Of a stretch of 64,000 nucleotides of DNA, positions 35,621 to 39,833 are shown one piece after another; position 1 is the stretch's first letter, and the number at the start of each line of letters is the position of its first letter. The DNA comes from Candidatus Uhrbacteria bacterium (GTDB lineage: Bacteria > Patescibacteriota > Patescibacteriia > UBA9934). The DNA lies in contig CALRAI010000001.1 of assembly GCA_943350635.1 (NCBI GenBank), positions 4,051 to 68,050 on the forward strand. The letters are read 5' to 3'. A model generated the notes under the pieces. The model was not told the origin of the DNA. It saw only the letters and a program-made list of their open reading frames with translations, and did no database searches. The translations under genes were made by a program, and so were the position numbers.

Positions 35621-36574
35621 CTATTTAAATGGCTTTTGAAGTTTTGATTGCACAACTTCGCTTATTTTATGGGCATCCCCGTGGCTCAACATGCCAAGAT
35701 ACGAGGATACGGATTCCTCTTTGCTCTCTGTTCCAAGATTATTCATCATTCTGCGTTTGGTGGTCGTACGAAGAACCCGATGATGCGGAAAATGCACCCA
35801 GCCTAGGAAATCAATTCCCGAGGCGATTGTGGCAATGGAGACTTTGTTTGGGTGCAACGCGAGGTGTAACCGTGACTCTAAAAATTCAGCGATCTGCGGC
35901 AGGAGATGTTCTAAATATTCTCTGCCTTCATGCAGGACGACAAAATCGTCGGCGTAGCGGATGTAATGTGCTGCCTTCAAATTGCGCTTTATGAAGTGAT
36001 CAAACACGTTCATGTAGATATTGACCAAAAGTTGGCTCGTAAGGTTACCGAGCGGAAGTCCGACGCCGGGCCTGCCGTCCGTGTGAAAACTCCCGATCAC
36101 TTCCGCGAGGAGCCAAAGAATATCTGTGTCGTTGACATGCCTTTTGATGACGTCGAGGAGAATCGCATGATCGATGTTGGCAAAGAACTTTCGTATGTCG
36201 CATTTCAACACCCAAGCGGTACGGGTGTGGTTTTTGGAAACCTTGGCGGCAAATTCTCGAAGACGATTGATTGCGCGATGCGTACCCCTCCCCTCGCGAC
36301 AGGAGTACGAATCAAAAATGAATTTACGATCGAAGAATGGATATAGGATTCGATAGATTGCGTGATGCAGGAGCCGATCACGGACGGTCGCTTTATGAAT
36401 ATCCCTTGGCTTCGGGTCGTTAATCTTAAAGGCATGGTATCCGCCGTGCCGGTAGGACCTATTGGCGAGGTCGCCGTGCAACGCGACGAGATTATCCATG
36501 AGGCTTGCCGCGAAGAGGGCAACGTCTTCCCGTTTCCTTTTTCCAGACAAAAACTCCTGCCAGGCGGCAAGCAA
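35621..36574 (-). CDS. diversity-generating retroelement reverse transcriptase
   Basis: RT motifs including YADDFVVL, and the DGR-specific LGNLTSQLLVNIY (GxxxSQ in place of group II QGxxxSP). 317 aa. TR/VR pair nearby. Confidence 0.85.
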   Translation of the reverse strand: MLAAWQEFLSGKRKREDVALFAASLMDNLVALHGDLANRSYRHGGYHAFKINDPKPRDIHKATVRDRLLHHAIYRILYPFFDRKFIFDSYSCREGRGTHRAINRLREFAAKVSKNHTRTAWVLKCDIRKFFANIDHAILLDVIKRHVNDTDILWLLAEVIGSFHTDGRPGVGLPLGNLTSQLLVNIYMNVFDHFIKRNLKAAHYIRYADDFVVLHEGREYLEHLLPQIAEFLESRLHLALHPNKVSIATIASGIDFLGWVHFPHHRVLRTTTKRRMMNNLGTESKEESVSSYLGMLSHGDAHKISEVVQSKLQKPFK

Positions 36575-36624
36575 ATTTTCAACAGAAATGATATCCTGAT
36601 ACGTACTATGGAGCCGCGCCCTGA

Positions 36625-36664
36625 TCTCTCTCTCTCTCTCTCTCTCTCTCTCTCTCTCTCTCTC
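36625..36664. repeat. (TC)20 dinucleotide microsatellite
   Basis: Seen directly in the sequence, between the RT start (36574) and the Avd-like ORF (36709). Confidence 0.95.
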
Positions 36665-36708
36665 GTGCCGGAAGCGCGTCGATTCTCCAGCGCGTCAAAG
36701 AGGGATAT

Positions 36709-37032
36709 TTGGTTTGGATGAACATTGCGCCGCATATTGCAAAGGGTGCGCGTTTTACGATTGGCGCCAGGATTGAAAGTAAGTTTCTCGACCTGTTGGA
36801 GTTGAGTTACGCCGCCTATTTTACCGACAAAGAAAAGAAGGTTGCAAAGATTGCCGAGTGTGTCTTCGTGCTCGATACGCTCAAGTTTCTCATCACCACA
36901 GCATGGGAAGGAAGACTGATAGCCAATAAGCAGTGCGAGGACGTTGCCAAAAAGCTGGACGAGATCGGCAAGATGTTCGGGGGCTGGAAGAAGAATCTCG
37001 AAAACCCTGAACGAAAAAACCGCGCCATGTAA
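36709..37032 (+). CDS. Avd-like four-helix-bundle protein (accessory variability determinant / 23S rRNA IVS protein family)
   Basis: …KFLDLLELSYAAY…LKFLITTAWEGRLI…EDVAKKLDEIGKMFGGW resembles the C-terminal two-thirds of TIGR02436-type proteins. TTG start in the ORF track (an ATG lies at 36718). Opposite strand to RT, TR and target. Confidence 0.45.
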   Translation: MVWMNIAPHIAKGARFTIGARIESKFLDLLELSYAAYFTDKEKKVAKIAECVFVLDTLKFLITTAWEGRLIANKQCEDVAKKLDEIGKMFGGWKKNLENPERKNRAM

Positions 37033-37046
37033 GCGCGGAATCAAGC

Positions 37047-37183
37047 ACTTTCGAAGACGGAAGACGAACTCATTGTTCGCATTCCACTTGTTCGTCGGCT
37101 TCGCCCAATTGTTGTTGAGCCACGACCCATCGTCATTGCGTTCCACGTTGAAGACGTTCGGGTTGCCGTCCGAGTCGGATTGC
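37047..37183 (-). repeat. DGR template repeat (TR)
   Basis: About 135 nt that aligns to 37507-37640. Every one of the ~17 mismatches is an A in TR (coding strand) versus C/G/T/A-change in VR. AAC/AAT-rich (NNNWAKPTNKWNANNEF). Confidence 0.85.
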
Positions 37184-37482
37184 ATGGCGTGCCGCCCTTG
37201 CCACTGCCCGCCTATCTAGGAAAGAGGTCGAGCTGTATTTTATGCGTGATCGAAAATCACCAAGCGCGCCATACCAAGTACTTCATTTTTGTTTGGACAC
37301 TCTACGCATCCTCCGAAAGAAGCCGTAGCCACCTTCGTTCTCAACACGCAGGTGCCGAAAGGGTCTCGATAAGCCGTGGCCGACCGATGTAACCAATCTG
37401 CACTCCAGAATACCAAAAATTTTCCGATCCGCCTACGGCGGAAAGCATCAAAGGGTCAAAGAAACAAAGTTTCAAGAAGTAA

Positions 37483-39693
37483 CTAAGGCCTCAAGGGTTT
37501 CTTGCGAAGACGGAAGACGAACTCATAGCTCGCATCCCACACGTCCGCCGGCTTCGCCCAATCGTCGCGGAGCCACGACCCATCGTCATTGCGTCCCACG
37601 TAGAAGACGCCCGGGCTGCCGCCCGAGTCGGAAATTTGCTTCATGCCAACGTACACATATTCGTTCATTGGTTGATTTGTGTACTGCAAACGGAATTGCG
37701 GACCGACCTCTGGCGGACAAAGCTCGAGACCCAGCTCTTCAGCTCGGGCGTAAATTTGATCTGTCGTTGCACCGCTTGGGAAACCCAAATCTTCTACGCG
37801 AAGGCGGATAAGCTTCGCTTCCTCTGGAGATTTGAGTTTCCACTTTTTCCAATCTGGTTGCTTTGGGTCGGGCTCGCGAAGGGAACGCTTGAAGTCATCG
37901 TGTTCCATCATTGATTTGGCGTATCCGTAAATTTGGAATCCGCTACGTTCAAGAAGATTTTCAAGTTCCTGTTCGTCCTTGCCACCGATCTCAATGCTTT
38001 GACGGCGAATGCGGCTCTCAGGGAATTTGGTGTAAACATGCTCTACGCCTTCCGGTAGCTGATCGAAAATGCCAGGCTCAAGCTTGCCGACGTAGGCTTT
38101 AGTCGATTCGTTGATCTGATCAACCGAACGGGCAATTTGGCTTTCATCGCACTCAAAGACGACAAGCATGTCCTCATCAGGATTACGCTCACGGTGCAGT
38201 TCGACAACACGAGGATCCTTGTCGTAGCCGAAACCCTCGATAGGAGCATTGATTTCGTAGAGGAAAAGAAGGTCTTGTTTTGTGAGCGGCTTACCGGCAA
38301 CGGTCTTTTGTTCGACGAGGGTCAAGAGTCTCATGTCGCCGGCTTTCTTCTCGTAAGCCGTGCCATCTGGAAATTCTTTCATCTTTGCTCCGACAACTGG
38401 CGCGATATGCGGATCGAGGTTCTGATCGGGCGCGATACCACGAACCTCGGCAATCTTATCGCCTTCCATACGAATAGCGGCACGGGGAATGCTGCTTGCG
38501 CCGGATTCATCTTGCGAATAGTAAACATAAAAGTCGCCACGGGAGAGCTGGGACTTTGCCACCTCTTCTCCGGCGGTACACCAACCGGTCTTGTGGCGCT
38601 CGATGGATTGGACGAGCAGGGTTGGCTCGGAGCCTTGGGCATACTTCACCCATTGTCCCGTAGTGTTATGCAAGAGCGTTTCGCTGGTCGGGATGAGCTT
38701 GGCAAATTCAAGGGCATAGAGTCTGGCAAAATCCTTGGCATCCAAAGCCGATTGAACTTCCGGTTCGAGATTTCGTTCGTCGACAGGCGTTGCAATTTCA
38801 AACGTTGACGGATCAAACGGAGCCATGTCAAGTTCCGCGATGATTCGTTCGCGGTCAACGGGCGCGGCTGGGTTTTGTTTCTTGGCTTCGGCAATCTTTT
38901 GTCCGATAACAAGCTGGCGTTCCTTGTTGTGCTTTTTTTCTGCTCGTTCCAGCTCCTGCCGTGACGCTGCAAGCTGTTCCTTGTAAATACGATCATGTTC
39001 AACGTGATCGCGAACCTTTCCAAGAACTGCCTGGTCCAATTCGGGGAACGGATTCATGGTCTCTTCGTCCCTGGAGGGAAAGGTTTTGGTGTCCTTATCA
39101 AAACTCGAGAGTCCGGTGACGCTTCTCATTGCCCAGTACCTGAACCAGTCTGGGTAGGCGGCTCCGGCATCATCGGTTGCAAGATAGTCGATCCACTTGT
39201 CCAGTGATCGCTTTTGGTCTTCGATCTTGGCGACGATTTCCTCGGCCATCTGCTTTTGTTCGTTCGGAAGTTCCTGAAGCTCTTCCCCGATGTCTGATCC
39301 TTTGGCGATAGCCTGTACCGCGCGCGTAATCTGATCGTGGACATCATCGGGAATGTCCGTGTCGCCATGTCCTAGGGCACGCGCCTGTTTTTGTTGGTGC
39401 CCCAAATATTCCTCGGTGGCGACGTCAGGTTTCACGATCAGGGCTTCGTGCATGAAGCGCTTCATCATGGAGAGGTTGCGTGCCTTGCGGTCAAAGCTCT
39501 CGTGGCCCTTGATCGGCGGCGGATTGAGCACCACGTCCAGGCGGTCTAGATATGCCTGTATACGTTCCGCTGGGATATTCCGAACACGCTCGCGTGTTCG
39601 AGATTCTTTGCGCGCAACAGCCCTCTCCGCTTCCGGCGATTTCTCAAGCTGGTATTTCTGTCGAAGAAATTCGGGGTTTGATCCTTTTTCCAT
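37483..39693 (-). CDS. DGR target protein with C-terminal C-type lectin/FGE-sulfatase-like variable domain
   Basis: 737-aa soluble protein with no signal peptide. C-terminus fits the CLec VR pattern (G-x-x-x-GSW…W…FVFRL) and contains the VR. Start taken at MEKGSN. Confidence 0.75.
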   Translation of the reverse strand: MEKGSNPEFLRQKYQLEKSPEAERAVARKESRTRERVRNIPAERIQAYLDRLDVVLNPPPIKGHESFDRKARNLSMMKRFMHEALIVKPDVATEEYLGHQQKQARALGHGDTDIPDDVHDQITRAVQAIAKGSDIGEELQELPNEQKQMAEEIVAKIEDQKRSLDKWIDYLATDDAGAAYPDWFRYWAMRSVTGLSSFDKDTKTFPSRDEETMNPFPELDQAVLGKVRDHVEHDRIYKEQLAASRQELERAEKKHNKERQLVIGQKIAEAKKQNPAAPVDRERIIAELDMAPFDPSTFEIATPVDERNLEPEVQSALDAKDFARLYALEFAKLIPTSETLLHNTTGQWVKYAQGSEPTLLVQSIERHKTGWCTAGEEVAKSQLSRGDFYVYYSQDESGASSIPRAAIRMEGDKIAEVRGIAPDQNLDPHIAPVVGAKMKEFPDGTAYEKKAGDMRLLTLVEQKTVAGKPLTKQDLLFLYEINAPIEGFGYDKDPRVVELHRERNPDEDMLVVFECDESQIARSVDQINESTKAYVGKLEPGIFDQLPEGVEHVYTKFPESRIRRQSIEIGGKDEQELENLLERSGFQIYGYAKSMMEHDDFKRSLREPDPKQPDWKKWKLKSPEEAKLIRLRVEDLGFPSGATTDQIYARAEELGLELCPPEVGPQFRLQYTNQPMNEYVYVGMKQISDSGGSPGVFYVGRNDDGSWLRDDWAKPADVWDASYEFVFRLRKKPLRP
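37507..37640 (-). repeat. DGR variable repeat (VR) at the 3' end of the target gene
   Basis: Encodes …GRNDDGSWLRDDWAKPADVWDASYEFVFRLRK. Differs from TR only at TR-adenine positions. Confidence 0.85.
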
Positions 39694-39833
39694 ATGCGGG
39701 AATGGTAGCAAAAACAGCCCAGAATTGGTAGCGCACGTCCACACCTATTTAGGTGGCCTTGAGTTACTACATCTTTTTTGCCCCATTCAAAACGCCACCC
39801 CAGATGGATGGCGTTTTATCTTGTAATTTCTCC

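Follow-up and report, generated by a model that had tools for sequence, protein, structure and literature searches.

The stretch of DNA analysed here, hereafter the window, comprises 64,000 nt of the genome of a Candidatus Uhrbacteria bacterium (contig CALRAI010000001.1 of assembly GCA_943350635.1), and it contains a diversity-generating retroelement (DGR). The DGR is genuine and intact, and its cassette is an ordinary member of a class that is abundant in the candidate phyla radiation (CPR). We consider it highly probable that the region represents a complete chromosomal DGR of the Patescibacteria (CPR) type with architecture B3, to which a predicted template RNA fold and a predicted simple sequence repeat (SSR) switch belong. 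Comparison with related loci points to two features of the whole clade, a slippery repeat tract in the accessory gene avd and a permuted, structured template RNA. A further proposal is offered more tentatively, since we put its chances a little short of even: that CPR DGRs are under contingency control by the avd tract, which would turn mutagenesis on and off heritably and so lock in variants, and that their RNA is circularly permuted, with a 5′ equivalent of the spacer presumably giving the primer.

Template and variable repeats

A repeat search of the window revealed a 132-nt direct repeat whose two copies, the template repeat (TR, 37048–37179) and the variable repeat (VR, 37501–37632), are offset by 453 nt and are 86% identical. 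Both are read on the minus strand, where the VR forms the last 44 codons of the 737-aa target gene and the TR, with 37 adenines, is rich in AAC and AAT codons. On this coding strand there are 18 mismatches, all of them at TR adenines (18/18; hypergeometric P=2.6e-12), with 0 non-A mismatches across the 132 nt. Codon position 1 or 2 is affected in 17/18. The encoded peptides read ...NNNWAKPTNKWNANNEF in the TR and ...RDDWAKPADVWDASYEF in the VR. An earlier sequence-only reading had described such a repeat, with the VR at the 3′ end of the 737-aa gene and some 17 differences confined to TR adenines. Our tabulation bears this out, one of the 18 differences being the fixed boundary considered below, and the TR and VR peptides that it quoted are correct on translation. 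The coordinates that it gave, 37047–37183 and 37507–37640, need correction by a few bases.

The variable sites of the VR run from 37622 to ~37526, while its 3′ part (~37501–37525; GAGTTCGTCTTCCGTCTTCGCAAG) is invariant and holds a fixed C37504, reminiscent of an initiation of mutagenic homing (IMH) boundary. This 3′-most TR/VR difference, A37051/C37504, is identical in all four VRs compared, and we therefore take it to be a fixed transfer boundary and not a product of mutagenesis, which leaves ~17 mutagenised positions. A GC-rich 14-mer of the kind found in phage BPP-1 is absent. A hairpin, CCGCC-GTA-GGCGG followed by a T-run (37429–37441, minus strand), lies ~60 nt downstream of the VR and is conserved in two close relatives with the same cassette, L001 and L002, whose target proteins are 90% and 84% identical to that of the window. 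It may serve as a terminator of the target gene, as an aid to homing or as both; in known DGRs, a hairpin downstream of the VR assists homing. No second VR was found in the window when both strands were scanned with the TR, treating A as N.

Comparison with these relatives reveals the direction of information transfer. The TR is nearly invariant between the window, L001 and L002, differing at just three non-A positions (50, 108 and 116). At two of these, every VR agrees with its own TR; at the third, agreement is seen in L001 but not in L002. Over the four VRs compared, 32 of the 42 variable columns are TR adenines. The transfer is thus one-way from TR to VR: lineage-specific non-A substitutions in the TR have been copied into the cognate VR, and the VRs differ at A sites where the TRs are near-invariant. 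A third relative, L003, has the target (80% identical) without the cassette, and its VR-like segment departs from the TR at 8 non-A positions, compared with 0 in the window. Contig k141_433040 of an independent assembly (ENA ERZ27280297) matches the window without a difference for 16,818 nt and breaks off at 37623; the adjoining base, 37622, is the first variable VR site. The 140 nt preceding this break point have no copy in the TR, and the simplest cause of the break would be a branch in the assembly graph arising from several VR alleles in the population; as evidence of such alleles, the break is indirect.

To place the cassette in its clade, 160 loci were collected by their reverse transcriptase (RT; 60–93% identity), almost all from metagenome-assembled genomes of Patescibacteria. 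An adenine-biased TR/VR pair is present in 107 of the 112 testable loci, with the TR on the RT strand and abutting the 3′ end of avd.

Reverse transcriptase

The RT is encoded on the minus strand at 35621–36613. The canonical open reading frame (ORF), 35621–36574, starts from TTG 36574 (317 aa); conserved coding sequence (HSTYQDIISVEN...) reaches at least 36610. In this upstream extension the window has an ACG codon (36604–36602) where L087 has ATG and L008 has GTG. The ORF carries the motifs LGNLTSQ and YADD, on which the sequence-only reading had based its assignment to the DGR class, and profile and structure comparisons now favour the same assignment over a group II or retron origin. The best match in the PDB is 8ub7_A (328 aa, 153.8 bits, E 6e-44), 74 bits ahead of the next-best structures, which are group II or retron-type and score ~80 bits. 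In the alignment, LGNLTSQ falls on IGSLTSQ (I181–Q187) and YADD on YMDD. Since the numbering of this alignment coincides with that given for bRT by Handa et al. (I181, G182, Q187, D215 and D216), the match is to the prototype DGR RT, that of Bordetella phage BPP-1, where the cassette has the order mtd-avd-TR-Sp-brt and a bRT-Avd-RNA particle has been described (Handa et al. 2018, PMC6182149; 2024 preprint 10.1101/2023.10.23.563531). The protein also matches phrog_1423, 'Reverse transcriptase', with 380 bits, and it aligns end to end with its relatives without frameshifts. The placement is by motif and by profile and PDB scores.

Downstream of the RT gene there is a perfect 20-nt inverted repeat with a 4-nt loop (35226–35269), a 15-bp terminator-like hairpin (35088–35121) and a weak, sub-threshold RNAI-like Rfam match (35146–35264).

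The avd gene and cassette architecture

Between the TR and the RT gene, on the plus strand and hence opposite to RT, TR and target, lies avd (accessory variability determinant; 36608–37032), which is absent from the sequence-only reading. The ORF was called at 36709–37032, the frame of the Avd domain extends from 36665 to the stop codon at 37030–37032, and the start is assigned to ATG 36608–36610, the complement of a His codon of the RT. The product matches the Pfam family bAvd with 51.7 bits (cut-off 40) and the PHROG family 'Avd protein of DGR' with 66 bits.

The cassette thus has the order target – VR – TR – (avd reversed) – RT. The arrangement TR-(avd)-RT is architecture B3, reported for 90% of CPR DGRs (Wu et al. 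2018, PMC5758913). In our comparison set, avd is directly upstream of, and divergent from, the RT gene in 149/149 loci where it is visible, so that the reversed avd is a rule of the clade and not an oddity. We considered the antisense avd as a novelty and rejected the idea, the architecture being published and universal in the relatives. These relatives, like the homologues of the target, are Patescibacteria (Uhrbacteria, Paceibacterota and others).

An extended −10-like motif, TGATATCCT (36589–36597, plus strand), is situated 10 nt upstream of ATG 36608. Most relatives have TGATATCAT at a distance of 7 nt from the avd ATG, in the form ATGATAT[C/T]AT at −17 to −8 on the avd strand; the 7-nt spacing is seen in 61/87 loci with TGnTAY. 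A promoter here would yield a leaderless avd mRNA, beginning at ATG 36608 or a few nt from it. We treat it as only a lead, because the same bases encode D-I-I-S of the RT on the other strand.

In the public annotations of L001 and L002, the RT gene is uncalled and an over-long minus-strand ORF is called in its place (L001 8667–9755, 362 aa; L002 8656–9555, 299 aa), running through the repeat tract described in the next section into antisense RT. A Pfam bAvd match is recorded on this ORF in L001 and none in L002, though tblastn places avd inside it. Because the head-to-head overlap and the tract mislead gene callers, which leave the RT uncalled or fuse avd to antisense RT, cassettes of this clade may escape automated surveys, and DGR numbers counted automatically in CPR genomes are likely to be too low.

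A slippery repeat tract in avd

The 5′ coding region of avd contains a perfect (GA)20/(TC)20 SSR (36625–36664), longer than the slippage threshold, which begins 17 nt after ATG 36608 and lies directly upstream of the N-terminal RT codons. It is the sole dinucleotide microsatellite of at least 6 units in the 64-kb window. A tract is present at the same site in 120 of 129 unique loci, as (GA)n of 10–40 nt in 73 and as poly-G of 8–12 nt in 47; the remaining 1.02 Mb of the same loci hold 8 dinucleotide repeats of at least 5 units and 4 G/C runs of at least 8. The tracts are kept as perfect repeats across RT identities of 60–93%, and their length differs in all 6 of 6 groups of loci with near-identical flanks (for example 35/27/31 nt, or G9/G10). 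As the two tract types encode unrelated peptides, (Ser-Leu)n and Pro(n), the conserved property is slipperiness and not sequence.

The tract is coding in avd. Codon periodicity of the Avd frame continues to 0–1 nt from the tract (at A-S-I-L, the entropy is 0.10–0.45 at position 2 and 1.2–1.5 at position 3), and the interval from the tract to the conserved Avd N-terminus holds no ATG, GTG or TTG in the related loci. Beyond the tract, at a distance of 13–24 nt, an ATG that is the complement of the conserved RT His codon is found in 119/120 loci. It is in frame with Avd in only 36/119 tract-bearing loci (frames 0/1/2 = 36/44/39), as against 8/9 loci that have no tract (Fisher P=8e-4). From the tract-less loci, we conclude that the upstream ATG is the avd start and that scrambling of its frame is confined to loci with a slippery tract. 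An out-of-frame avd does not go with poorer TR/VR pairs, non-A mismatches being 0.92 in out-of-frame and 0.93 in in-frame loci; the out-of-frame loci are therefore not decaying. Taken together with the variation in length, this pattern suggests that Avd, and with it cDNA synthesis, is probably switched by slipped-strand changes in the tract.

Two other roles for this part of the sequence were set aside. In the Haemophilus hif locus, a tract acts as the spacer between the −35 and −10 elements of divergent promoters; in our loci, the TTGAC-like and TAAAA-like hexamers are at least 40 nt apart and the tract is coding in avd, so the idea was dropped. A second ATG on the avd strand, in GAAATGATATC, was considered as the start of another frame and rejected, as a stop codon is reached before the tract. 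The slippery avd tract is not described in the literature that we searched, nor are the 5′ structured RNA and the P0 pairing presented below; Paul et al. 2017 was outside this search.

A structured RNA domain 5′ of the template repeat

Directly 5′ of the TR, on the same strand, is a structured RNA domain (37180–37292, minus strand) that is conserved in an alignment of 84 loci and whose secondary structure was derived with RNAalifold. It opens with an A-rich leader, the 5′ strand of a proposed helix P0 (37287–37276), which is complementary to the TR 3′ end and the linker beyond it. The 5′ strand of P1 follows (37274–37263), and then a P2 hairpin, a conserved single-stranded AUAAAAUACAGC, a variable P3 hairpin and CAGUGG. 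The 3′ strand of P1 (37193–37182) completes a 12-bp long-range helix that ends 2 nt before the TR.

Covariation supports P1–P3. Double compensatory changes occur in 19 of the 21 pairs, and in 10 of the 12 pairs of P1; 94% of alignment cells are paired, compared with 26–49% in controls with slid partners, and 0/500 shuffles reach the observed values. A covariance model of the domain has a single match in the window, at 37168–37292 (minus strand; 101 bits, E 6e-21). The model finds the expected position in loci outside its training set and nothing in the cassette-less L003. A single-sequence fold of the putative TR transcript was uninformative (z=−1.2), the structure being seen only by comparison, and Rfam contains no family matching the RNA that flanks the TR. 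Second matches of the model occur in single loci, at 2852–2989 (minus strand) in L103 and at 4989–5115 (plus strand) in L127/L129, with 101.6 and 40.6 bits; this suggests a second TR unit, or a remnant of one, near some cassettes.

The 3′ flank of the TR (37014–37050, minus strand) consists of the P0 3′ strand AAGUGCUUGAUU (37050–37039), complementary to the leader, a hairpin CCGCGC-UUACAUG-GCGCGG (37038–37020) and U6 (37019–37014). The hairpin is terminator-like and holds the avd stop codon in its loop. A GC-rich hairpin and U-run directly 3′ of the TR are present in 90/95 unique flanks, formed by 69 distinct stems, compared with 10% of random segments. Handa et al. reported putative Avd-binding stem-loops just 3′ of the TR in 207/278 DGRs, CPR included, and by analogy the hairpin seen here is probably the same element. 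Their survey covered only 40 nt upstream of the TR and so would not have revealed the 5′ domain.

In the window the P0 partners are AAUGAAGUACUU and AAGUGCUUGAUU, with one mismatch. The two strands co-change by lineage, as in AAAAGAAAA/UUUUCUUUU, AAAUGAAGA/UCUUCAUUU, AAAUGAAAA/UUUUCAUUU and AAAAAUAAAGA/UCUUUAUUUUU. P0 is nevertheless less firmly established than P1. If it is real, both ends of the TR are held together, since P0 and P1 adjoin on their 5′ strand.

The spacer between the target stop codon and the 5′ RNA domain (37300–37480) is conserved among the window, L001 and L002, above the level of avd synonymous sites, and could hold a promoter for the TR RNA.

The target protein

The target (variable-protein) gene occupies 37483–39696 on the minus strand, giving 737 aa from ATG 39696; the longest ORF, of 753 aa, starts from GTG 39744. 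The protein begins with a hydrophilic, helical region. Its interior contains a GNAT-like α/β domain, in which GTGWCTAGE...GDFYVYYS...PRAAIRM...EVRG is invariant, and the VR is carried by a C-terminal domain that is tentatively C-type-lectin (CLec)-like. Cys373 and Glu377 are invariant residues. Given the character of the N-terminus, the protein is likely to be cytoplasmic. Sequence profiles gave no match in Pfam (whole protein or three pieces, E≤10), NCBIfam, PHROGs or PADLOC, and no match was found in the PDB by sequence or by family profile. An AlphaFold (AF2) model calculated from 88 sequences has a pLDDT (predicted local distance difference test score) of 90.6, and fold matches were obtained; a C-type-lectin-like fold for the tip is weakly supported. 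The closest known counterparts of such a tip would be the C-type-lectin-fold variable proteins of DGRs (Mtd, TvpA and the archaeal AvpA) and the FGE-sulfatase fold.

More than 1700 homologues of the target were found, none of them named or with a Pfam domain; the sources that are named belong to Patescibacteria, among them Uhrbacteria, Parcubacteria and Levybacteria. In roughly half of the related cassettes, the targeted protein is homologous to it over the C-terminal half or more. An orthologue 80% identical to the target is situated between GroEL and other housekeeping genes in L003/L004/L005 (GCA_016188495.1 and two Logan assemblies), and its surroundings contain neither TR nor avd nor RT. 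An adjacent DGR is thus not essential to the target family. That the target is of phage origin, or is packaged in a phage, was considered and rejected, there being no viral fold match (best E 0.098) and the neighbours being housekeeping genes. Weak PcfJ-like viral matches (E 0.17 and 1.1) are a lead only.

Genomic context

The neighbours of the cassette include genes for FtsE/FtsX, an HtrA-type protease and an SPFH protein as well as tRNAs, and from these housekeeping neighbours we conclude that it is chromosomal. Homology with L002 is limited to 35652–39714, the flanks in L002 being a type I restriction system and GmrSD, and in L001 an IS110 element follows the RT gene. What is conserved as a unit is thus the 4-kb cassette, in surroundings that vary. 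Look-ups with the exact protein sequences of the target and two left-flank genes returned no other contigs, and the contigs that FtsX retrieved stop short of the cassette. Further assemblies of this genome, or of one very close to it (L167, L168 and L169), end at ~33409 and 32941, and L169 is without the 329-aa gene at 31371–32360; the region to the left of the cassette therefore varies between strains.

On the other side, adjoining the 5′ end of the target gene, the minus-strand gene 39834–40433 encodes a hydrophobic N-terminal segment followed by a tRNA_anti-like OB-fold (95.7 bits) and matches the PHROG family 'superinfection exclusion Sie-like' with 99 bits. About 350 nt of its 3′ end are within the homology block that the window has in common with L001. 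The Rfam LOOT RNA motif (RF03000; gathering score 46.4) occurs twice in the window, at 15922–16043 and 40395–40517 (both minus strand; 91.5 and 77.7 bits), and the second copy, two genes from the target, overlaps the 5′ end of ORF 39834–40433. Further along are a ParB_N-N6_N4 DNA methyltransferase fusion (41461–42825, plus strand; phrog_498, 328 bits) and, overlapping it, a second, shorter N6_N4 methyltransferase ORF (42785–43393, plus strand). The pair may represent a split or duplicated methylase. A tRNA-Gln gene (43493–43566) follows.

A model for mutagenesis and its control

We propose that a minus-strand RNA of ~280 nt, from about 37292 to about 37014, would comprise the structured 5′ domain (leader and P1–P3), the TR, a short linker and the hairpin with its U-run. 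The leader would pair with the TR 3′ end and linker to form P0, and P1 would abut the TR 5′ end, so that both template ends would be held at the P0/P1 junction. The conserved A of ACUUGG, at 37279, is a candidate for the priming nucleotide. RT and Avd would make from it an adenine-mutagenised cDNA that replaces the VR, recoding ~17 positions in the C-type-lectin-like tip of the 737-aa, cytoplasmic-looking target. Control would be exerted at the avd start, where the ATG overlaps the N-terminal RT codons and the first avd codons traverse the (GA)n or poly-G tract, slippage of which would put Avd in or out of frame. The requirement of Avd for cDNA synthesis is established in BPP-1 (PMC6182149) and is assumed for the DGR of the window; because Avd is needed there, slippage would switch mutagenesis on and off, heritably and reversibly. 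With 20 units, avd in the window is predicted to be OFF, and 19 or 22 units (−1 or +2) would restore the full 140/142-aa Avd.

Several observations weigh against this model or parts of it. In the window avd is out of frame by one unit, (GA)20 leading to a stop after 37 residues, and none of the codons ATG, GTG and TTG occurs in the conserved RT N-terminus (HSTYQDIISVEN) once the upstream stop is passed, so that this copy could be switched off or impaired. The uniform distribution of frames among the loci is equally expected if the frame is irrelevant, for instance with slippage at the RNA level. The match of Avd to the NCBIfam model DivGenRetAVD (NF033474), 60.8 bits, is under the curated cut-off of 80. 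P0 has a mean duplex score of 8.1, only a modest excess over the 5.9–6.9 of the controls; it lies in low-complexity A/U-rich sequence, and the formal pair-count test covered P1–P3. For the proposed promoter and leaderless mRNA, the RT codons on the opposite strand are a confounder, and the material compared was assemblies, in which heterogeneity of the VR and SSR within a population is not seen directly.

These points bear on alternatives of unequal weight. The most serious is that transcriptional slippage or ribosomal frameshifting takes place at the tract, which would produce a fixed fraction of Avd whatever the length of the DNA and would make it an attenuator and not a heritable switch. 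Homopolymer and dinucleotide runs are known slippage sites, and both the uniform frames and the equal cleanness of TR/VR pairs in and out of frame are as this explanation would have them; but DNA-level length changes in 6/6 near-identical groups mean that heritable switching must occur as well, and we regard this explanation as unlikely, if worth serious attention. The two levels are not exclusive, and RNA-level slippage may be acting alongside the DNA switch. It is more doubtful that the tract is simply the purine-rich ribosome-binding site and 5′ untranslated region of the RT, neutrally expanded, with Avd expression independent of it. Both tract types are all-purine on the RT strand and in many other loci an in-frame RT ATG follows 5–20 nt after the tract, which may therefore double as the RT ribosome-binding region; uniform frames would be expected here too. 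Against this explanation, avd periodicity extends to the edge of the tract with no start codon in between, the upstream ATG is in frame in 8/9 tract-less loci, and 8–12 G or 10–40 nt of GA, kept perfect over the full range of RT identities, far exceed what a Shine-Dalgarno sequence needs. We judge it improbable.

The remaining alternatives concern the cassette itself. It might be a decaying relic that is no longer diversifying, with avd frameshifted and the RT start lost, as the out-of-frame avd ATG and the ACG in place of the ATG of L087 could be taken to indicate. Decay is difficult to reconcile with the absence of non-A mismatches over 132 nt when cassette-less L003 has accumulated 8, with an RT that is colinear with its relatives, with an RNA domain scoring 101 bits and with an independent assembly that breaks exactly at the first variable VR base. 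Moreover, about two thirds of related cassettes are out of frame with no signs of decay, and we think a relic quite improbable. That the region is no DGR at all but a group II intron or retron-type RT beside a chance or duplicated repeat has in its favour that the best NCBIfam match of the RT is a group II intron RT/maturase model, at 155.6 bits far under its cut-off of 300; the NCBIfam matches returned include no DGR RT model. This reading is refuted by the adenine bias of the 18 mismatches, the presence of an Avd homologue, the 74-bit lead of bRT among PDB matches and the same adenine-biased pair in 107/112 related loci, and its probability is negligible.

To our knowledge, little is known about the regulation of DGR mutagenesis, and to mutate a working protein without pause is costly. 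If the switch is real, CPR bacteria would have in slippage-controlled Avd a simple and heritable means to stop the mutator after a good variant has arisen and to restart it later.

Comparison with known systems

The closest counterparts are the published CPR DGRs, architecture B3 of Wu et al. (2018, PMC5758913) and DGR clade 2 of Roux et al. (2021, PMC8144416), which have the same gene order and the same reversed avd. They too are cellular (chromosomal), belong to Patescibacteria hosts and have a TR of ~130 nt and targets without recognisable domains. The cassette of the window is typical of them, with no difference in kind, and the avd tract, the 5′ RNA and the P0 pairing are features of the clade as a whole.

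The DGR of BPP-1 shares with the window a homologous RT with I/LGxxxSQ and Y(M/A)DD motifs, Avd, adenine-specific mutagenesis, a stem-loop just 3′ of the TR and adjacent duplexes, one abutting the TR 5′ end and the other involving the TR 3′ end. It differs in that the avd of the window is on the opposite strand, between TR and RT, and has a slippery repeat, and in that the target is a cellular protein and not a phage tail fibre. The ~140-nt spacer 3′ of the TR in BPP-1 is absent from the window, where a 9-nt linker, the hairpin and U6 lead into antisense avd. The template:primer duplex of BPP-1 and its neighbour, the cPRT Stop duplex, both use this spacer (Handa et al.), whereas in the window the topology is permuted: both TR flanks would pair with a strand situated 5′ of the TR, and P1 is formed by two upstream segments and not by one upstream and one downstream. 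P0 and P1 thus resemble the template:primer and cPRT Stop duplexes in permuted form, and by this analogy would be their functional equivalents. The 5′ domain with P0 and P1 extends the recent structural model of the bRT-Avd-RNA particle to a permuted topology, and it defines a minimal RNA for reconstituting a CPR DGR or for engineering compact DGRs.

The tract recalls contingency loci, in which SSRs mediate phase variation, for example of surface genes in Haemophilus, Neisseria and Campylobacter (Moxon et al. 2006, as cited in PMC3521204). As in those loci, a perfect mono- or dinucleotide tract is found in the first codons, near-identical sequences differ in its length, roughly a third of the copies are in frame, and a change in unit number restores the full ORF. 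The likeness is drawn from sequence comparison, and the host here is a CPR bacterium. The gene concerned also differs: avd encodes neither a surface antigen nor a restriction enzyme but a part of another targeted hypermutation system, so that, if the proposal is true, one diversity generator would gate another.

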